Positions 52,035 through 61,090 are shown, counted from the first letter of the stretch. The stretch is DNA of 64,000 nucleotides from Planctomycetota bacterium (GCA_038227875.1 JBBRPR010000015.1:1-64000), one strand, 5' to 3'. Translations and numbers: made by a program. The notes: a model not told the origin generated them from the letters alone.

Positions 52035-53513
52035 ATGGCTCGATTCGATCTCCGGACCGCCTTCAAATTCAGCGTGATCGCCATTTTTGCATGTTTTACC
52101 TGTTGGACGCGCGCCGAAGACGCGGCGGTGGCGCCGCGGATCGTCGATGGCACGCCGCAGCCGGTTTCCGCGTTTCCGGCGGTGGGCGTGATTGAAGATG
52201 ACACGCATTCGTTCACCTGCACCGGCACGCTGATCGATCCGACTCACGTGCTCACGGCCGGACACTGCGCCACCGATGAAGCGACCGGCAAGCCTGTCGC
52301 CGATGGGGCGGGGCGCTTTACGATTGGCGGCACCACGTACAAGACCGCTCGCATTTTCGTTCATCCCAGCTACAGCGGCGCGGTGGTCGGCTCGGACAAT
52401 GTTTTCGACGTCGCCGTTTTTCAGCTCGAACGCGCTGTGCCCAACGTGACGCCTGTGCCGATCAACCGGACTCCGCCCACGGTTGGACAGACCGTGACGC
52501 TGGTCGGCTTTGGCCTCGTCGGCTCGGGCAAATCCGGCACGCTGAAAAAAGTGCCGCCGCCCGGCATCGTCTACAAGGGCACCAATACGATTCAGACCAT
52601 CACCAACAGCGAACTGATCTGGACCTTCACGCAAGGCACCAGCAGCAATGCGCCGGGCGATTCGGGCGGGCCGGCGTTCGTCGATGTCAACGGCACGATG
52701 GCGATCGCCGGCATTACGTCCCTGGGCGAAACGATCGGCGGAAACAAGATCCGCTTTGGCGCGAAGAACTTCGACACGCGCATCGACACGCTGGCGCCGT
52801 GGATCGACCGCATCCTCACCGGCACCTCGCTGGACGTGCCGCCGACGTTCGTTTCGCCGATCACGATTAATCCCAATCCGGCGACCGTGGGTGATTCCGT
52901 CCAATTCACCGCTGCCGCGACGGATCCGGACGACGCGAGCATTTTCTACCTCTGGAATTTTGGCGACGGCACCGCCTCGACCGGATCGACGGTGGCTCAT
53001 AACTACGTCTTTCCCGGCACGTACGCGGTCTCGGTCACGGCCAGCGATATTGTGACGGGCGTGACCTCCAATGCCAACGTGGTGGTGTTGCCGCAGAGCA
53101 CCGGCACGATCAGCGTCGACAAATTGCAGATCGGCGTCTCGTTCTCCGCCTCGAACAAGGATTCGGTCTCGCTGCAGGCGACGTTGCAGCCGCTTTCGAG
53201 CCTCACGGCGCTGCCGGCGGTCGGCGTGTTAAGCATCGGTGGCGCACAGATTCAATTCATGCTCGACCAGCGCGGGCAGGCCAAAATTCCCCTGGGCATC
53301 TTGAAGTTCAATTTGCTGAAGGGCACGTTCACCGCAAACCTGCGCAACACAAATCTATCGAGTCAGCTCGGCAGCACGGGCATCATCAACACCACCGTGA
53401 CTAATGCCAAAGTGACCGTGCCCATCGGATTGATTTTGAATGGCGTGGCATTTCAGGCGGACAAGTCGCTGCTCTATTCCGCCAAGGCCGACAAGAGCGG
53501 CAAAGCGAAGTGA
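52035..53513 (+). CDS. Secreted trypsin-like (S1) serine protease + PKD + unnamed C-terminal domain
   Basis: Signal peptide, RIVDG activation motif, CTGTLI, VLTAGHC, DVAV, GDSGGP; YLWNFGDG PKD. Confidence 0.9.
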   Translation: MARFDLRTAFKFSVIAIFACFTCWTRAEDAAVAPRIVDGTPQPVSAFPAVGVIEDDTHSFTCTGTLIDPTHVLTAGHCATDEATGKPVADGAGRFTIGGTTYKTARIFVHPSYSGAVVGSDNVFDVAVFQLERAVPNVTPVPINRTPPTVGQTVTLVGFGLVGSGKSGTLKKVPPPGIVYKGTNTIQTITNSELIWTFTQGTSSNAPGDSGGPAFVDVNGTMAIAGITSLGETIGGNKIRFGAKNFDTRIDTLAPWIDRILTGTSLDVPPTFVSPITINPNPATVGDSVQFTAAATDPDDASIFYLWNFGDGTASTGSTVAHNYVFPGTYAVSVTASDIVTGVTSNANVVVLPQSTGTISVDKLQIGVSFSASNKDSVSLQATLQPLSSLTALPAVGVLSIGGAQIQFMLDQRGQAKIPLGILKFNLLKGTFTANLRNTNLSSQLGSTGIINTTVTNAKVTVPIGLILNGVAFQADKSLLYSAKADKSGKAK

Positions 53514-53586
53514 TTGCGGATTGCGGATTGCGGATTGCGGATTGCGGATTGCGGATTGCGGATTGCGGATTGCGGATTGCGGATTG
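53512..53586 (+). repeat. Perfect heptamer tandem repeat (GATTGCG)x10 + partial
   Basis: Counted directly; first unit overlaps the TGA stop of the protease. Confidence 0.95.
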
Positions 53587-53698
53587 GATGTCGATGCGCC
53601 GCGGATCGAAAGCGCGCGCTGTGAGGCGCGAGATTCACGCGCAAGCGGATTGATTATTATAATTGAGAAGGTGCTCAGCCCGAATGCGGTGCGCTGAG

Positions 53699-53730
53699 CA
53701 GGGAGCAAGCAAACGGCCACTTGCTCCCTG
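53699..53730. repeat. GGAGCAAG...CTTGCTCC hairpin (REP-like; possible terminator between convergent genes)
   Basis: CAGGGAGCAAG-CAAACGGCCA-CTTGCTCCCTG; same stem as the elements at 61308-61446. Confidence 0.65.
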
Positions 53731-53751
53731 ACACACGTTCGGGTCTGTGCG

Positions 53752-55524
53752 TCAGTTGGCGCTTCCGGAAATTCCCTTCCGTACGGTGTAGTTCACGGTG
53801 CGTGTGGTCTGGTAGGTCGTGGCGTTGACGATCAGGGTGATCATCATCCCCAGTTGCTGATTCTTTACCGTCGCGTCGCTCGTGAATCCCGACGACGCCA
53901 GAGTGGCGGCTAAGTCAGCTTTGTTCAACTTTAGTGTGAAAGCGGTCGAACCGGCGTGCGGTTTGGCGACGGTAAGTTCGCGGCTGCGGCCCCGGGCGTC
54001 CAGCTGGATCGCCAGCGAAATGCCGCTGGCATTCACGATCACCGAGGTGCTCCGCAAGGGTGTTTCATTCGGCAATGTGCCGCGGAGCAGGAATTGATCG
54101 TGCTGCGCGCGCTGGAAGTCGAGCTTTAACTTCAACGCTTTAATTTTCAGCGGCTGGATCAGCGGCGGCGGCGGAAACGGATCGACCGAACTTCCCGTCC
54201 CCACGACCACGGAGACCCATGCGGTGGTGACCTTTCCGCGTTCGTCACTCACGACCAGCAGCACCGCGTACGTCCCGTCCGCTGCGAAGGCATGCGTGAC
54301 GGAACTTCCCGGCGCGGTCGTGCCGTCGCCGAAATTCCACAGATAGCTGATCGTGTCGCCTTCGGCGTCGAACGCCGCAGCTGTAAACACGACATCCTGC
54401 AACACGGCCGCGTTGGACGGCGTCGCCAGCGGCGCGGAAATCAGCGTGGGCGCGCTGTTCGCACCGGTGTACCAGAAGCGCAGGACCTTCGCGGCGAGTT
54501 TTCCGCGCGCGGTATAGTCTCGATCGTCGGAAGCCGGAACGGGCGCTTTCCAGCCCCACCAGAACATGCCTTTCAGCCACGGTTCCTGCGCGAAAACTTC
54601 GAACGCGGCTTCGTAGCAATTGGCCTGCTCCTGCTGATCGGGCACCGCCGTCGCCACGTTCACGTAATAGGGCGTGATGTTCGTCCCCTGCGCGCTCTGG
54701 TAGCCGATCTCGGTGAACATCACGGGCTGGTTGAGCGAGGCCTGCCAGGTCCGGTACGCGAGCACCATGTCCTGCCCGAAGAAATCGTGGCGCCACGCGG
54801 CGGTCAGTTCGGACACGGTCGGATCGTTTTTCGATGTCAGCGGGCAGTAGACGTCGAGGCCCGCGATGTCCAGCAGTGGCCAGAACGAACACGTCAGGTA
54901 CTCATCGCCGATTTGAAACGCATTCGCCGCGTAGGTCAGCGGACCGGTATAGACGGCACGGATGTTCTGAATAATGGTCGCCCAGCGTGCCGCGTTGGCT
55001 GAAGGGGTCATTGTTTTCAACTCGCAGCCAATGCAGAACAGGTCCACGTGCTGCGCCTGCGCCAGCGCCGCGAAATGCATGATGAACGTGTTGTAGCTGG
55101 CAAACCAGGCGTCGATATCCGCGGGCGCAATCGTGCCGCGAAAAGTTCCATCGTAGATGTCCACCTGCGGTTTGAGCATCACGCGCAGACCGCGGGCGTG
55201 CATGTCCGAAATGGCCTGCACCAACGCGGCGTCCGTGGGCGTGACGCCCGTGTCCACATGGATCGTCGAAGCCGTCTTCGAATCCATGAACCATGTCGAC
55301 AGCAGCGACGCCCAGTTCGCTCCGGTGGCGCGCAGATCGGTCAGCGAAGCTCCGGAATCCGGCAGTTGGTACTCGCTGGTCTGATACGAAATGTAGGCCA
55401 CGCCGCGGTACGTGAATGCCGTCGCGTCGGTCGCTGCGAAAATTGAACGCGACCCCGCCGCAAGACACGCGATGCCCGCTGCAATCAAAATCAGATTTTG
55501 CCATCGCAATCGCACGCCACTCAC
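53752..55524 (-). CDS. Secreted GH113-like glycoside hydrolase + PKD + unnamed C-terminal domain
   Basis: GLRVMLKPQV, FCIGCEL, YTGPLTYAAN, GLDVYCPL, PVMFTEIGY, GMFWWGW; YLWNFGDG PKD. Confidence 0.85.
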   Translation of the reverse strand: MSGVRLRWQNLILIAAGIACLAAGSRSIFAATDATAFTYRGVAYISYQTSEYQLPDSGASLTDLRATGANWASLLSTWFMDSKTASTIHVDTGVTPTDAALVQAISDMHARGLRVMLKPQVDIYDGTFRGTIAPADIDAWFASYNTFIMHFAALAQAQHVDLFCIGCELKTMTPSANAARWATIIQNIRAVYTGPLTYAANAFQIGDEYLTCSFWPLLDIAGLDVYCPLTSKNDPTVSELTAAWRHDFFGQDMVLAYRTWQASLNQPVMFTEIGYQSAQGTNITPYYVNVATAVPDQQEQANCYEAAFEVFAQEPWLKGMFWWGWKAPVPASDDRDYTARGKLAAKVLRFWYTGANSAPTLISAPLATPSNAAVLQDVVFTAAAFDAEGDTISYLWNFGDGTTAPGSSVTHAFAADGTYAVLLVVSDERGKVTTAWVSVVVGTGSSVDPFPPPPLIQPLKIKALKLKLDFQRAQHDQFLLRGTLPNETPLRSTSVIVNASGISLAIQLDARGRSRELTVAKPHAGSTAFTLKLNKADLAATLASSGFTSDATVKNQQLGMMITLIVNATTYQTTRTVNYTVRKGISGSAN

Positions 55525-55788
55525 CTCGACACATCTCTTAAACTCAAGATGTACTAATTGTTGTGGTTTCTTCAGCGCACTTCAAGTTTTAGTGTGGAAT
55601 TCGGGTGAAATAGGTTAACGCGCGCCGTCGAAACCCGCTCAAAAATATTTTGTCGATTTCCTTGGTGAAACCGCGACCGTGCGGGTGTGGAGGGTTGAAG
55701 TGCAGCGTGCGGAGCGGAACGGATGCATTCAGTTGTCAATAGTGTAGACTGCCAGCACACACGCACCGCACCTTCGGGGCAGGGCCTG

Positions 55789-57183
55789 ATGACGAGCGAA
55801 CGCGATGACGCTGCCTTGCTACTGGCGATCTCAAAAAATCGCGACCGTGAGGCCTTCGCCGAACTCTATCGTCGGCACGCCCAAGCCGGTTTGAATCTCG
55901 CACTCTACATCACCAACAACCGGGAATCGGCCGAAGAGGCACTTCAAGAGGCGTTGCTGCGCGTCTGGCGCTCGGCGACCCCGGTGACCGGCAACGGACG
56001 CGCGTGGGTACTCCGCATCGTGGTGCACGAGGCACTCCGCGCCATTCGCAAGAATCGCAAAGGAAAAGCAGTGCAGGCAACCTATGCAGAACCGGCCGCG
56101 CCGCGTGTGGATGCGCAGATCGAGCACAGTGAATTGCTCGCTGGCCTCAACTCCGTGCTGGAGAAGCTGCCGCAACTGGAACGCAAACTGGTGGTGATGA
56201 GTTTCGCGGGAGGATTGTCGCAGGACGAGATCGCCGATTCGCTTTCCATGCCGCAGCAGACGGTCTCCTACAAGCTGGCGGAAGCGCTCAAGCAACTCAA
56301 GCGGTCGCTGACGGAGCTGGGTTTTGCGGCGGCATTGCCGCTGGTCTCCGCAGAGGGCATCGTCGAAGCGTTGTCGGCCAAACCGGCGGCTGCTCCGCCC
56401 TTGAATCTGGCACTGCTTGATCGCATTCAATCCGACGCCCGGAAATCGATGCGTCGCGCCACGACCAAGTCGGGAAAATCCGCAATCGTCTGGAGCACGG
56501 GCGTGTTCGCCGTGGCCATCGCCGCGAGTGGTCTGTGGTACGCCACGGCGAAGCAACCGACCGCAACCGTTGCTCCACCGCCTGTCAGTAAAGCACCGGC
56601 CGACGACGGATGGCGAAACGTGGCCGTGTCGCCGATCGTGAAATTTCATTCCGAGATTCCCGCCAACGATATTGCGCTGAAGGCAATTCCGGATGGCGAT
56701 GGTGAGTGGAAAGTTTCACAGAATGCAGGCGGGACGCAGATTGAACAGGTCAATCCGCGCGTGACCGGCGCGCAATATATCACCGTCGGTGAATTGGTTT
56801 CGGGCGCCTGCGAATGGAGTGCGGACGTCGAAGAACCCGCCGCAGGCATCGCGGGCTACATGGCCCTACTGCCGCCCGTTGAAAACAAAATTATCGGCCT
56901 GCACCTGGCCCAGAACGGAACCGCGCCCCTGCGTATTGTTTCCTGGCCGATTCACAAAGGGGTTCGCGTGGTCTCGATCCGGAAGCTTCAAGACAAACTT
57001 TCGGTGGGCATGCAAACGCTCGTGACGCCCGACGGCACCTTCAACATTGGATTCTTCACCAGCTCGACGCTGACCATTCGGAATCTCCGCTGGAGATCGC
57101 TGCCGAAAGATTGGAAGCCCGAACTGGACCCGGAACTCAAGAAGCTCGGGCCCGCCGTATTCAAAACGGAAGCAGAGCGCTAA
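55789..57183 (+). CDS. ECF sigma-70 factor fused via TM helix to an unknown extracytoplasmic domain
   Basis: DAALL..DREAFAELYRRH, AEEALQEALLRVWR, LEKLPQLERKLVVM..GLSQDEIA; TM IVWSTGVFAVAIAASGLWYA. Confidence 0.85.
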   Translation: MTSERDDAALLLAISKNRDREAFAELYRRHAQAGLNLALYITNNRESAEEALQEALLRVWRSATPVTGNGRAWVLRIVVHEALRAIRKNRKGKAVQATYAEPAAPRVDAQIEHSELLAGLNSVLEKLPQLERKLVVMSFAGGLSQDEIADSLSMPQQTVSYKLAEALKQLKRSLTELGFAAALPLVSAEGIVEALSAKPAAAPPLNLALLDRIQSDARKSMRRATTKSGKSAIVWSTGVFAVAIAASGLWYATAKQPTATVAPPPVSKAPADDGWRNVAVSPIVKFHSEIPANDIALKAIPDGDGEWKVSQNAGGTQIEQVNPRVTGAQYITVGELVSGACEWSADVEEPAAGIAGYMALLPPVENKIIGLHLAQNGTAPLRIVSWPIHKGVRVVSIRKLQDKLSVGMQTLVTPDGTFNIGFFTSSTLTIRNLRWRSLPKDWKPELDPELKKLGPAVFKTEAER

Positions 57184-57294
57184 CCAGCAGATTTAAAGCT
57201 TTCAAACAGCAGCAGGCGATCCCGCAGAGCCGGGCGCGCAGGGTGGCGTGTTGCCCAACGACAATCGATGGCGTTTTGGAATGGAGCGCACCGC

Positions 57295-57606
57295 ATGAGT
57301 AACGCCGCCTCATCACGAGCTACTTTCGACACCACCGCGCGGCAATCCGCGCCGTGGAGCGTGGACCGCTGGGGCCGCTTGCTCTCCGGGACGTTGATCC
57401 TGACGTTCACGCTGCTGGGACTGTTCCATCATCCCGTCTGGCTCTACGTCACCGCCTGCGTTTCGGCCAGCCTGATCATGACGTCACTGACCGACCGCTG
57501 CCTGGTGCGGCGAGCGCTGCTGGCTCTGGGCGCCAAAGAACGTGAAGACTTGTTTCTCCCCGGTGGAGTGGTCCGCGGATCGAATGTGAAAGCTCTTCAG
57601 AAGTGA
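57295..57606 (+). CDS. DUF2892 (YgaP-like) small membrane protein
   Basis: SVDRWGRLLSG..two TM segments..LTDRCLV. Confidence 0.7.
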   Translation: MSNAASSRATFDTTARQSAPWSVDRWGRLLSGTLILTFTLLGLFHHPVWLYVTACVSASLIMTSLTDRCLVRRALLALGAKEREDLFLPGGVVRGSNVKALQK

Positions 57607-57634
57607 ACAGGCCACGCTGAGAAAAGGAGCGACC

Positions 57635-58339
57635 ATGCCAGAACTCAACGCTGTGGACACCGAAGTTCCGCGCCTCGACGAGAGACGCGTGCGCAGGGCG
57701 TCGAATATTTCCAGCGCACTGAGCGCCGTCGCGATGAACGACGAGCTTCAGGCAGACCTGTCGGAGATCGACGTGCGTCCGATCTGCAGTGACGCGGAAC
57801 TCGACGCCGTCTACCGCCTCACCCACGACGCCTACGTTGAACGGGGTTACTGCGCGCCGCAACCGGACGGCCGCTTGATTCACTACCCGCACCTGGACCG
57901 CATTCCTGAAACGACCATATTGGTGGCGTGTTCAGCTGGAGAGGTCATCGGAACGATTTCCTGGACCCGCGACAACGCGAACGGACTTCACGTCGATTCC
58001 GATTTCAAGACCGAGTGCGATCTCATTCGCGAGGAAGGGCGGGGCCTCGCGGCGTCGTGGCGAATCGCCACAAAGAACACCTGCCGCGCCGAGCGACGGT
58101 GTGTCATGGCCTTGATTCAGGCCGCGGTCAATCTCTGGTTCGAGTCCCGCGTGCCGACCTGCGTCTTTACCTTCAACCCGCGTCACGAACGCATTTACCA
58201 GCGCATGCTGAACATGACCACCGTCGCGCGCAGCGCCGGGACGCACGGCCTGAACGCCGCGCCGGCCGTGCTGATGCGCGCGGAGATTGAGAATCTTCCC
58301 GAGCGATTCGCGCGGGGTCTCACGTCGGTGAAGGCGTGA
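57635..58339 (+). CDS. FeeM-like N-acyl amino acid synthase / GNAT-fold acyltransferase
   Basis: DAVYRLTHDAYVERGY, IGTISWTRD..GL..D..F, FNPRHERIYQRML, APAVLM; AAGGAG RBS. Confidence 0.75.
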   Translation: MPELNAVDTEVPRLDERRVRRASNISSALSAVAMNDELQADLSEIDVRPICSDAELDAVYRLTHDAYVERGYCAPQPDGRLIHYPHLDRIPETTILVACSAGEVIGTISWTRDNANGLHVDSDFKTECDLIREEGRGLAASWRIATKNTCRAERRCVMALIQAAVNLWFESRVPTCVFTFNPRHERIYQRMLNMTTVARSAGTHGLNAAPAVLMRAEIENLPERFARGLTSVKA

Positions 58340-58351
58340 AACTTTTCGAAA

Positions 58352-61090
58352 TCAGCGGGCCATGCCGTTGCGCCCGGCTCGGGCCTTGTAGAGCAGTCCT
58401 TGAGAGGCCGAAAGTATCGAGCTGTTGAAGAGCACCTGGATCTTCAGGTTCACGGTGGTGGTCACGTCGTCGTTGACGAAACCCGCGGCGTTCAGCGATT
58501 TGACAAAATCGCCGCGGCTGAACTTCATCGTGAACTTCGCCGATTGCGCTGCGATCGAGCCTTGTTGTGCGCGCGCCTGTAACATGAATTGGCCCTTGGA
58601 GCCGATGCCCTTGCCGCGGGAGCTCAAGGTGAAGGAATCTTCCACGCCGCCGACATCCACGATCACTTTTTGACTGCCGAGTTGGATGTTGGCCGGCAGG
58701 TTAATCGTGCCCATCGCCATGATGCTGTCCGATCCACTGCGCAGGAAGTTCAGCTTGACCATCGCGCGCGTCACATTTAACGGCGTCGGTGCCGCGTTGG
58801 GATCGGTCACGGGACTGGAATTGGGATCATTCGGATTCGTTCCGGCGAGCAGTTCGATCGAATCGGAAACGCCGTCACCGTCGGAATCGTTCCCCGTGCC
58901 CAGCACCGGCGCTTTCACGGTAATGCTCGTGTTTGCACTGCTCGTGTCGCCGGCCGGATCGGAGACAGTCACTGTCGCGGTGTAGTCTCCGGCTGTGGCA
59001 TAGGAGTAGGTGACCGTCGGGCCCGAGCCGCTCCCGCCGTCTCCGAACGACCAGTCATAGGTGATCGACGGATCGCCCGTCGCCACCGCGGAGAACGTGA
59101 CCGTCTGTCCCTGGCTGGCGGGATTGGGCGTCGCGGTCGGCGGAGAAGTGAAGATCAACGTGCCCGGCCCGGCGGGAACCACCGTACCCAGGACCACGTA
59201 AGCCTGAGTCGCGTTGATCAACCCCGCGCCGGTGTAGGTGTCAGTGCCGCCCATCGGTTCACCTGGGTCCTCAGTAGGCGCCTGGGTGATGTCGGTTGCC
59301 GACGATTTAAACACGCCGAGCAATTGCGAGGGTGAGACGTGCGAGGCCTGCAGCAGCAGTGCGGCGACCGCCGCCGCGTTGGGCGCGGCGCAGGACGTGC
59401 CGGAGAAATTCGGGAAGCCGGAGTTGTCGGAATCGTTGCCGGTGCCGCCGGGGAACACCGTCGTGTCGATGTCATCGCACGCCGCGATGTCCGGCGTCTG
59501 GCGCATCACCACGCGCGGGTTGCCCTTGGTGTCGAAGTAATAGGGGACCGTACCGCCCTTGCTGGTGAAATTCTCCGGGATGGCTGGCTGTGCATAGTCG
59601 ATCGCGGCGACGCCGATGCAGGACGCTGCCGTGGGATGACCGTAGGAACTGATGGTGTTGCCGCCAACGGGATTGATCGTCGGCAGTGCTCCCGCGCCGT
59701 TGTCGTCGAAGACGATGCGCATGACGTTGCTGCCCGTTCCCGTGCTGCTGACGCGCGAGCCGGCGTGGTGATTGATCGCCAGGTACAGCGTCTTGGAATT
59801 GCTGGAGGTATTCTGGTAGTCGATCACTTCCATCGCATCGCCGGCGGGCGCGCCGACGGTGCCCTGGCGCTGTTCGCTCTTCATGATCACATTGGCGATG
59901 CTCGGGGCGCTGCAGAGATACAGATCGAGATCGCAATTCGATCCCGGTCCGAGATTGAAACTGCTCCACGGCTGATCCCATTGCAGGATCAGTGAAATCT
60001 GATCCTGGCCCGGAATGGCAATCGGTAAAAACGCACCGATGCCGTTGCCCCAGTCATGCAGACACGAACCACTTGGCGGAACGACGCCGTCGTCGCTCGT
60101 CACGCCGGGGTTGATGGGCTTGAATGTGGTCAGCACGCCCTGGTTGGCATCGTTGCCGAACGCGGAGAAGTGGGGGACACCCGCCACGCGATTGGCGGTG
60201 ATCGCCTGCGAGATGGGACCGTCCTGGAAGAAGGGTTCGTCTTCGAAGCCGATGTCATCGCAGGTGATCGTGCAGTGACCGGCGGTGCGCAGCAGGCCCA
60301 GGTTCATGCCCATCGCCGTCTGATCGTTGCCGCTCGACGCGAACGCCAGTGCCGCTCCCGGGGCGACATCGTGGATCACTTCCATCATGCCTTCGCCTTC
60401 GTCAGCTCCGCCGCCGGGTCCGAAGTCGACGACCTGAAACGAGGAGGGCAGATCGTGCGTGCCGCCGGGTCCGTTGGTCAGTTGCGGCTTGGTGCCGGTG
60501 ACGATCGCGTTGGGAGCGCTGCCGGTGACCGTGCCTTTGCCGACAGCGGTCGTATCCGTCACTGAATCGGAGACCACGCCGATGGTCTGGCCGGCGCCGG
60601 TCAGATTCTGCTGCGTGCGGAGCACATCCGACTTCATCACCGCGTCGCCTTGATTATTGGCGATGCCCTGTTGCCGCGCGCGCGGCCGGGGCTGCAGCTT
60701 GATCGACTTGATCACGCCCAGCGTGGAGAGCCCGTCGATCTGCGTCAACGTGGCGAGGACGCAGATGGTGTTCCACTGCGGAGCAGTGCTGGTGACCGTC
60801 GCGCCGGTGGCCTTGATCAGCGTCAGCAGATTTTCGGAGACTGGCGCATCGATCCGCACCGCGAACTGATTCACGTTGGCCGTGCTGCGCGAAACTGAGC
60901 GCGGGTGCGCGGCCTTGATGTCCGTGGCTGCCTGAGCATCGGTGGTGTTGTTGGCGTGCAAGGCGTCGAGCGCATCGAGCAGCCGCGCGTCGACTTTATG
61001 CGCGAGCGGGTGATCGGCCGCCAACGTCCCGGACATCGCGCAACTGAACAACAGACTTGAGATCAGAACGTTGAAAAACGTGCCTCGCAC
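58352..61090 (-). CDS. Secreted S8/S53-like serine peptidase + PKD + Ca-binding DxDxDG + unnamed C-terminal domain
   Basis: Signal peptide, propeptide; IGVVSDS, DEGEGMMEVIHDVAPGA, FSAFGN, FSGTSCAAPNAAAVAALL; WSFGDG; DSDGDGVSD. Confidence 0.88.
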   Translation of the reverse strand: MRGTFFNVLISSLLFSCAMSGTLAADHPLAHKVDARLLDALDALHANNTTDAQAATDIKAAHPRSVSRSTANVNQFAVRIDAPVSENLLTLIKATGATVTSTAPQWNTICVLATLTQIDGLSTLGVIKSIKLQPRPRARQQGIANNQGDAVMKSDVLRTQQNLTGAGQTIGVVSDSVTDTTAVGKGTVTGSAPNAIVTGTKPQLTNGPGGTHDLPSSFQVVDFGPGGGADEGEGMMEVIHDVAPGAALAFASSGNDQTAMGMNLGLLRTAGHCTITCDDIGFEDEPFFQDGPISQAITANRVAGVPHFSAFGNDANQGVLTTFKPINPGVTSDDGVVPPSGSCLHDWGNGIGAFLPIAIPGQDQISLILQWDQPWSSFNLGPGSNCDLDLYLCSAPSIANVIMKSEQRQGTVGAPAGDAMEVIDYQNTSSNSKTLYLAINHHAGSRVSSTGTGSNVMRIVFDDNGAGALPTINPVGGNTISSYGHPTAASCIGVAAIDYAQPAIPENFTSKGGTVPYYFDTKGNPRVVMRQTPDIAACDDIDTTVFPGGTGNDSDNSGFPNFSGTSCAAPNAAAVAALLLQASHVSPSQLLGVFKSSATDITQAPTEDPGEPMGGTDTYTGAGLINATQAYVVLGTVVPAGPGTLIFTSPPTATPNPASQGQTVTFSAVATGDPSITYDWSFGDGGSGSGPTVTYSYATAGDYTATVTVSDPAGDTSSANTSITVKAPVLGTGNDSDGDGVSDSIELLAGTNPNDPNSSPVTDPNAAPTPLNVTRAMVKLNFLRSGSDSIMAMGTINLPANIQLGSQKVIVDVGGVEDSFTLSSRGKGIGSKGQFMLQARAQQGSIAAQSAKFTMKFSRGDFVKSLNAAGFVNDDVTTTVNLKIQVLFNSSILSASQGLLYKARAGRNGMAR

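Follow-up and report, generated by a model that had tools for sequence, protein, structure and literature searches.

A recurrent basic C-terminal domain on secreted proteins of a Planctomycetota bacterium: a candidate surface-targeting and retention tag

Three secreted proteins with a common terminal domain

The window analyzed here is a stretch of 64,000 nucleotides from a Planctomycetota bacterium (GCA_038227875.1, JBBRPR010000015.1:1-64000), and the element in question is a C-terminal domain (CTD) of about 150 aa that closes three secreted proteins encoded between positions 52035 and 61090. A first-pass annotation, made from the sequence alone, had taken this shared domain for a candidate sorting or anchoring signal, and the three open reading frames (ORFs) it delimited are present. 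The first, on the + strand, encodes a trypsin-like secreted protein (52035-53513; ORF 51993/52035-53513, with a signal-peptide-like start at 52035), in which a Trypsin domain (~52140-52805, Pfam E 2.5e-25) is followed by a PKD domain (~52866-53087, Pfam PKD E 2e-15) and by CTD copy 1 (53091-53510, ~140 aa), which ends at the stop codon and matches a profile of the three copies at E 7.9e-58 in the search of the genome. The second, on the - strand, is a GH113-like glycosidase (53752-55524) composed of a signal peptide, a GH113 domain (~54502-55383, Pfam E 1.8e-56), a PKD domain (~54202-54429, Pfam PKD_4 E 2.8e-17), and a basic CTD, copy 2 (53755-54180, ~142 aa), which also ends at the stop codon and is recovered by alignment, BLASTP, and profile. 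The third, likewise on the - strand, is an S8-like peptidase (58352-61090) with a signal peptide, a weak Peptidase_S8 match (~59291-59662, Pfam E 1.6e-6), a PKD domain (~58919-59140, Pfam PKD E 2.5e-17), a linker of TSP3 repeats (~58823-58888, Pfam TSP3_bac E 6.1e-7), and a basic CTD, copy 3 (58355-58810, ~150 aa), which is recovered in the same way, ends at the stop codon, and served as the copy for AlphaFold2 modeling. A GATTGCG tandem repeat (10.7 units, 100% matches) occupies positions 53512-53586 between the convergent trypsin-like and GH113-like genes, and its start coincides with the last two bases of the stop codon of the trypsin-like gene.

All three proteins have a signal-peptide-like N-terminus according to a hydrophobicity heuristic, in agreement with the signal peptides first assigned to them, and each has a Pfam match to the single PKD domain that had been described. 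The claim of three different catalytic domains is firm for Trypsin and GH113, while the S8 assignment is weak at its E of 1.6e-6. Pairwise BLASTP comparisons of the three tails (E 1e-9, 1e-14, and 2e-8; 23-27% identity) demonstrate the homology that had been proposed, with the correction that the domain measures ~145-150 aa in the window proteins and not ~135 aa. The conserved blocks noted earlier reappear in a three-way alignment, namely the F, D, and T of the first block, the patterns G..L..RG and FT..L...G of the second and third, and the Y, G, and A within the last 12 residues.

The last ~145 aa of the three window proteins match no model in Pfam or NCBIfam. An alignment of 60 CTD copies from the same genome was used for wider family scans and for AlphaFold2; the CTD alignments contain no conserved stretch of 7-10 columns. 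No Pfam family was matched by more than one of the 60 copies at E ≤1, no NCBIfam model was matched by more than four (the best of those models being a generic adhesin, E 0.017), and a profile search of PDB sequences returned nothing at E ≤1. Homologs in databases are named only "PKD repeat protein" or "hypothetical protein," and the nearest ESM Atlas cluster is unnamed, with 611 members of which the few labeled ones are mostly Planctomycetota. No description of such a domain turned up among the papers listed by full-text literature searches. Judged by sequence, the domain is an uncatalogued family, absent from Pfam (2025), NCBIfam 20.0, and the PDB, which bears out the initial impression that it belongs to no named family; a match to a characterized carbohydrate-binding module (CBM) or other known domain was not found in these searches.

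The AlphaFold2 model of the copy from the S8-like protein (mean pLDDT 96.1, pTM 0.88) is all-beta, with ~11 strands, of which several span 10-13 residues, and one short helix. Foldseek gave no match to this model in the PDB at E ≤1e-3, the best TM score being <0.4. In an exhaustive VIA search the best match was a domain of Epstein-Barr virus gp350 (Z 7.0, root-mean-square deviation 4.3, 120 aligned), while 15 chains reached Z ≥5 and none reached Z ≥8; the neighbors are generic Ig-like or LEA14/TMEM106B-like sandwiches in a range that is common for the tool. The fold matches are thus all generic, and no outer-membrane barrel, type IX secretion system (T9SS) CTD, or CBM is among those listed, which is not evidence of absence. 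The domain is predicted to be a compact soluble beta-sandwich without an informative fold relative. The distinctions drawn at first sight also hold, in that the tail is predicted to be a soluble fold with hydrophilic last 12 residues, unlike the transmembrane helix of PEP-CTERM or LPXTG tags, and lacks the terminal aromatic residue of autotransporter barrels, the final residue being K in 59, R in 8, and F in 3 of 95 own-genome copies.

Family size, architecture, and distribution

The genome that contains the window comprises 9.34 Mb in 176 contigs and is 88% complete. A hidden Markov model (HMM) of the three window copies gave 92 matches in it at E ≤0.01 and, once iterated to convergence on the 53,153 stop-to-stop frames with a length of 80 aa or more, identified the domain in 106 ORFs. 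The prediction of many paralogs is borne out by this number, and the three copies of the window are far from the only ones. Just 23 of the 106 genes have a second family member within 10 kb, and the trio of the window therefore represents one among ten small clusters.

In 99 of the 106 ORFs, the stop codon follows the end of the domain by no more than 30 aa, and in 97 rows by no more than 10 aa; the remaining seven continue for another ~165-180 aa, and two proteins of this genome have a long insertion within the domain. The same position is seen in 158 of 160 database proteins (the best 150 of a scan plus 10 others), where the domain, or its last copy, ends within 15 aa of the C-terminus, and, again within 15 aa of the end, in 17 of 17 domain-bearing ORFs from a neighborhood set of 20 loci of up to 20 kb in 15 low-copy genomes from other families of the phylum. 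Two near-full copies of the domain are present in five of the 160 database proteins. True stand-alone proteins consisting of a signal peptide and the domain are rare (2/160), as most short matches are gene fragments. The expectation of an exclusively C-terminal domain is consequently right in nearly all cases (99/106, 158/160, and 17/17) and wrong in the strict sense, since seven of the 106 ORFs have a further domain downstream; the domain is almost never N-terminal or internal. A signal-peptide-like start was identified in 92 of the 106 ORFs with a heuristic of hydrophobicity and charge, consistent with the earlier view that the hosts are signal-peptide proteins, and several of the 14 ORFs without one are fragments at contig ends.

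The proteins that carry the domain were compared with Pfam in four batches covering all 106 ORFs (3 at E ≤0.1, 39 at E ≤1e-6, 38 at E ≤1e-8, and 26 at E ≤1e-5). The passengers include peptidases (Trypsin, Peptidase_S8, and Peptidase_C10), sugar enzymes (GH113, GH44, and glucose/sorbosone dehydrogenase, GSDH), NHL and Kelch propellers, right-handed beta-helices, and a range of repeat and binding domains (PATR repeats, CBM6, LamG, BNR, invasin/Big_1, cadherin-like, and He_PIG arrays), and many proteins lack any named domain. The functional diversity predicted from the three window proteins therefore extends across the family, and most of the ~100 tagged proteins per genome are not carbohydrate-active.

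A Pfam PKD domain was detected on 80 of the 106 tagged proteins (33/39, 28/38, 16/26, and 3/3 by scan batch), leaving 26 without one at the thresholds used. Conversely, a local PKD HMM built from 20 segments and run on 7,678 greedy gene calls of this genome identified 106 genes with PKD domains, 81 of which carry the CTD. The PKD domain lies upstream of the CTD in 80 of these 81 genes, and the gap from the last PKD domain to the CTD has a median of 28 aa (≤60 aa in 61/80 and ≤150 aa in 75/80). Thirteen of the 25 PKD genes without a CTD call have weak CTD-like tails when searched alone, with E-values that refer to a tiny database and are suggestive only. Three kinds of linker precede the CTD: TSP3 calcium-binding repeats, (GT)n runs, and Gly/Ser-rich stretches. 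Low-complexity (GT)n or Gly-rich linkers of up to at least 40 residues are present in many paralogs (for example at loci L037, L042, and L051), and in some proteins the PKD domain and the CTD are separated by more than 100 disordered residues. No conserved motif suggestive of a cleavage site is present in the linkers.

The domain is strongly basic and its passengers are acidic. Among 95 own-genome copies, the mean net charge is +10.8 (standard deviation 3.7, range -1 to +22) and the median isoelectric point (pI) is 10.15, with 98% of the copies above 8.5; the 600 aa upstream have a median pI of 4.76. Lysine makes up 9.5% of the domain versus 1.8% of the passengers, Arg being ~2% in both. The 160 database members show the same contrast (charge +10.7 and pI 10.05 in the domain, pI 4.19 upstream), and in distant families the charge of the domain is mostly positive (-3 to +20). 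Because Arg can replace Lys in those distant families, it is the charge and not lysine chemistry that is conserved, and a general requirement for lysine-specific chemistry, such as isopeptide formation or acylation, was dropped for the same reason. Cys is almost absent from the domain, Trp (0.4%) and Tyr (1.4%) are scarce, and in the 60-copy alignment conservation falls mostly on Gly, Asp, and residues of the hydrophobic core, and on few aromatics. An outer-membrane barrel or autotransporter anchor was rejected on these grounds (W 0.4%, Y 1.4%, K 9.5%, and a last residue that is mostly K and rarely F).

A scan of 1.84 billion cluster representatives returned 2833 matches at E ≤1e-3, of which 2205 reach E ≤1e-10 and 550 reach E ≤1e-30. 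In a sample of 41 related genomes, including the genome of the window, the domain is present in 14 of 16 genomes of the same family, with at least 94 copies in the richest, and in both genomes of the sister family; it was not found in the single genome that represents a third family within the order, nor in any of 21 genomes from four further families of the class. When the phylum was sampled evenly, the domain was found in 28 of 301 genomes, which include at least seven other families outside the class, and copy numbers in these genomes are low (the best 12 candidates per genome were scored). The predicted restriction to one lineage is consistent with these counts (14/16, 2/2, 0/21, and 28/301). 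The three members of the family with no copy or just one (G007, G010, and G002) show no more than 1-2 PKD_4 matches per genome at E ≤1e-8, compared with 106 PKD genes in the genome of the window, and the PKD proteins examined in them end in other domains, except for the single tagged protein of G002. Since these genomes are poor in both PKD domains and the CTD, the class of proteins that combines the two expanded or was lost together.

A second uncatalogued basic domain, of ~170 aa, follows the CTD in the seven own-genome proteins that extend beyond it and also ends some ~600-aa proteins (examples in this genome are L156:1-504:-, L160:2803-3306:+, and L183:1273-1794:+). This tail has no Pfam match, and its similarity to the CTD is not significant in hhalign (probability 3%). 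Its model is nevertheless all-beta (pLDDT 84.4), with an order of long and short strands that resembles that of the CTD, and the generic fold neighbors of the two overlap. The tail is present in 13 of 16 genomes of the family, missing exactly in G002, G007, and G010, in 2/2 genomes of the sister family, and in 0/22 elsewhere; five distant genomes that have the CTD gave one weak match only. The ~170-aa tail may be a divergent second type of tag.

Proposed surface retention and alternative roles

In planctomycetes and other bacteria of the Planctomycetes-Verrucomicrobia-Chlamydiae (PVC) group, protein transport across the outer membrane and protein display are poorly understood. The near-terminal position of the domain, its independence of cargo, the signal peptides, the flexible tethers, the ~100 copies, the restriction to a lineage, and the rarity of stand-alone copies all argue for a function in sorting or anchoring. 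We lean, with a little better than even confidence, towards the view that this terminal domain of ~150 aa serves a PVC-type lineage, probably Planctomycetota, as a tag that targets proteins to the surface and retains them there irrespective of cargo. The lineage-specific secretion, sorting, or attachment tag of the first-pass annotation is in this respect supported by genomic evidence, that is, by position, copy number, diversity of cargo, and phyletic restriction. The family is new, and it behaves like a known kind of element, the C-terminal sorting and anchoring domains. Retention is favored because the combination of a basic tag with an acidic passenger forms a dipole that fits non-covalent binding to an anionic polymer of the envelope, and by analogy such a dipole would be the expectation for that mode of attachment.

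Two groups of anchoring systems offer a comparison. The PEP-CTERM, LPXTG, and GlyGly-CTERM sequences are, like the domain described here, lineage-specific C-terminal tags on many paralogous secreted proteins, and tags of the PEP-CTERM/exosortase type were reportedly found by the same kind of comparative genomics. However, these tags are only ~25-40 aa long and combine a motif with a transmembrane helix and a basic tail, whereas the present tag is a folded soluble domain of 150 aa without a hydrophobic tail. The S-layer homology (SLH) domains, GW modules, and S-layer anchoring domains of Gram-positive bacteria are basic, cargo-independent modules that hold acidic passengers on an anionic wall polymer. 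These modules are usually tandem repeats, located at the N- or C-terminus, in monoderm or atypical envelopes. They are unrelated to the tag in sequence (no Pfam match), and binding by the tag is putative, by analogy with them.

The data establish that secreted proteins share a conserved basic domain at their terminus, and the steps from there are a proposal. The proteins would be exported by Sec through ordinary N-terminal signal peptides, to judge from the heuristic. In the layout observed, the passenger (protease, glycosidase, beta-propeller, beta-helix, or adhesin-like repeats) is followed by a stalk of PKD domain and flexible linker that ends in the tag. Given its charge, its position, and the diversity of its cargo, the basic tag would carry the acidic passenger to the envelope's outer face and hold it at that site through binding to an anionic polymer of the envelope, for example lipopolysaccharide or an acidic polysaccharide. 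By analogy with the T9SS CTD, it might also be recognized for the crossing of the outer membrane. The tag and the PKD-bearing proteins would have expanded together in this lineage to ~100 genes per genome.

Several observations weigh against this interpretation. Within the 20 loci of the neighborhood set, no family recurs beside the tag genes, the largest non-tag cluster being present in three genomes, and neither these neighborhoods nor those in the own genome revealed a partner or machinery. The domain is not strictly terminal, with a ~170-aa domain after it in 7/106 proteins and tandem copies in 5/160, and such non-terminal and tandem copies suit a binding module better than a secretion signal. 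The signal peptides were judged with a simple heuristic, and the phyletic pattern rests on related genomes, beneath which lie few independent events. Anionic substrates outside the cell could be bound by a basic domain just as well, and the predicted fold, being generic, neither supports nor contradicts any of these functions.

The strongest alternative is that the tag is an outer-membrane secretion signal of an undiscovered pathway, an analog of the T9SS CTD that a dedicated translocon reads and that is then cleaved off or replaced by a covalent anchor; its positive charge would serve recognition and not retention. We consider this unlikely, although the architecture parallels that of T9SS cargo point by point, in which, according to PMC4804311, a signal peptide and a variable cargo are followed by an Ig-like or PKD domain, a flexible linker, and a terminal beta-sandwich CTD. 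The type A CTD (Por_Secre_tail, PF18962/TIGR04183) is, like the tag, a cargo-independent terminal beta-sandwich on proteins with Sec signals, located downstream of an Ig-like or PKD domain and an unstructured linker, and is restricted to a lineage with dozens to ~100 copies per genome (PMC4804311). The two differ in sequence, size, and charge. None of 60 tag copies matches PF18962 at E ≤1, and hhalign gave a probability of 0.15% for the 60-sequence profile against five PF18962-verified CTDs; the tag, with ~150 aa and ~11 strands, is twice as large as the type A CTD of ~70-90 aa and seven strands, it is strongly basic where the T9SS controls are near neutral (net charge -9 to +4), and it belongs to a different phylum. 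The type B CTD (CHU_C, PF13585/TIGR04131), a terminal sorting domain on large surface proteins with multiple Ig or PKD domains, resembles the tag in position but is again unrelated in profile (0/60 at E ≤1; hhalign 3.7% against 10 PF13585-verified domains). No T9SS C-terminal sorting model in NCBIfam was matched by any of the 60 copies, and a lone match (E 0.036) of one copy to TIGR03519 concerns the PorP/SprF membrane-protein model and not a CTD.

A secretion signal would accord with ~100 substrates per genome, a nearly invariant terminal position, and the scarcity of stand-alone copies. Type B is a second type of tag beside type A in the T9SS, and the ~170-aa tail, which is related in fold and has the same distribution among relatives, recalls this duality and may parallel it. 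Among the Bacteroidota PKD proteins (loci L097-L143), which came from a single-protein scan that matched only the PKD domains in unrelated phyla, all 15 scanned end in T9SS CTDs (5 Por_Secre_tail and 10 CHU_C), and this too speaks for a secretion signal; 18 ORFs had their stop codon within the locus, of which one near-duplicate and two without an obvious CTD were left out. These proteins have the same layout of stalk and terminal tag, with a different tag. On the other side stand the neighborhood analysis, which gave no candidate machinery, the linker without a conserved cleavage motif, the tandem and internal copies, and the lack of profile similarity to either type of T9SS CTD. PorV (NF033710) and SprA (TIGR04189) had no match in this 88% complete genome, the control for PorV giving a match in one genome only, and there below its cut-off, and that for SprA being silent (positive in 0/14 genomes). 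Exosortase (PF09721; control positive in 1/14 genomes) and FtsZ (TIGR00065; control positive in 13/14 genomes) were likewise unmatched. The missing FtsZ match, taken with the labeled taxa of the ESM Atlas cluster, suggests a member of the Planctomycetota. The positive charge of the tag fits surface retention at least as well as a secretion signal.

A more far-reaching version of the parallel is possible but, in our judgment, rather doubtful. The tag would mark the substrates of an undiscovered pathway for outer-membrane secretion and surface attachment of Planctomycetota-like bacteria, an independently evolved counterpart of the T9SS with ~100 substrates per genome, two related types of tag (150 aa and ~170 aa), and a machinery that is encoded away from its substrates.

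Alternatively, the domain could be a CBM- or adhesin-like module that attaches its proteins to external anionic polysaccharides (acidic or sulfated), DNA, or minerals, which we hold to be less likely again than a secretion signal. Its basic character, its tethering by flexible linkers as in CBMs, the tandem copies in 5/160 proteins, and the presence of glycosidases and of CBM6 among the cargo are consistent with such a module. The domain is found, however, on ~100 proteins per genome of which most are not carbohydrate-active, it almost never takes the N-terminal or internal position, and few aromatics are conserved in it, most conserved positions being Gly, Asp, or part of the hydrophobic core. 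No CBM model is among the Pfam matches of the 60 copies at E ≤1, and the fold matches are generic sandwiches.

A purely structural domain, which caps the PKD stalk or helps it to fold, has no role in sorting or binding, and spread as a PKD-plus-tail cassette by duplication, would explain its presence on 81 of 106 PKD genes at a median distance of 28 aa and the near absence of both elements from the same relatives, but we regard it as very improbable, since at the thresholds used Pfam detects no PKD domain on 26 of the 106 tagged proteins, linkers of up to >100 disordered residues part the two, the conserved contrast in charge with the passenger is left unexplained, and PKD domains elsewhere need no such cap.

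If the surface-targeting and retention tag is accepted, a single recognizable domain on ~100 proteins per genome would predict the surface and secreted proteome of this lineage, including its proteases and glycosidases, and would provide a bait for its binding partner or translocon. It may also serve as a portable handle for surface display, a use to which T9SS CTDs have already been put (PMC12860637). For the databases, the family fills a gap of 2833 clusters at 50% identity that have no annotation for this region.

Genes adjacent to the tag genes

Between the CTD genes of the window lies a gene for a sigma factor of the extracytoplasmic function (ECF) type with a ~290-aa C-terminal extension (55723-57183, + strand; Pfam Sigma70_r2, Sigma70_r4, and ECF), which looks like a member of a set of 94 own-genome paralogs of ~490 aa. 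Within this genome, 25 of the 94 are located within 6 kb of tag genes (uncorrected hypergeometric p 1e-4), an enrichment that points to regulation and not to transport. A FeeM-like N-acyl amino acid synthase (57635-58339, + strand; Pfam E 5.4e-34) belongs to a 17-member family with only weak enrichment near tag genes in the own genome (5/17, uncorrected p 0.047). The families enriched near tag genes are regulators or lipid enzymes and not obvious translocons. The FeeM-like gene adjoins a gene for an ECF-sigma-like protein of ~490 aa on contigs C102 and C13 as well as in the window, and on C102 and C49 it is followed by a gene for a protein of ~565 aa.

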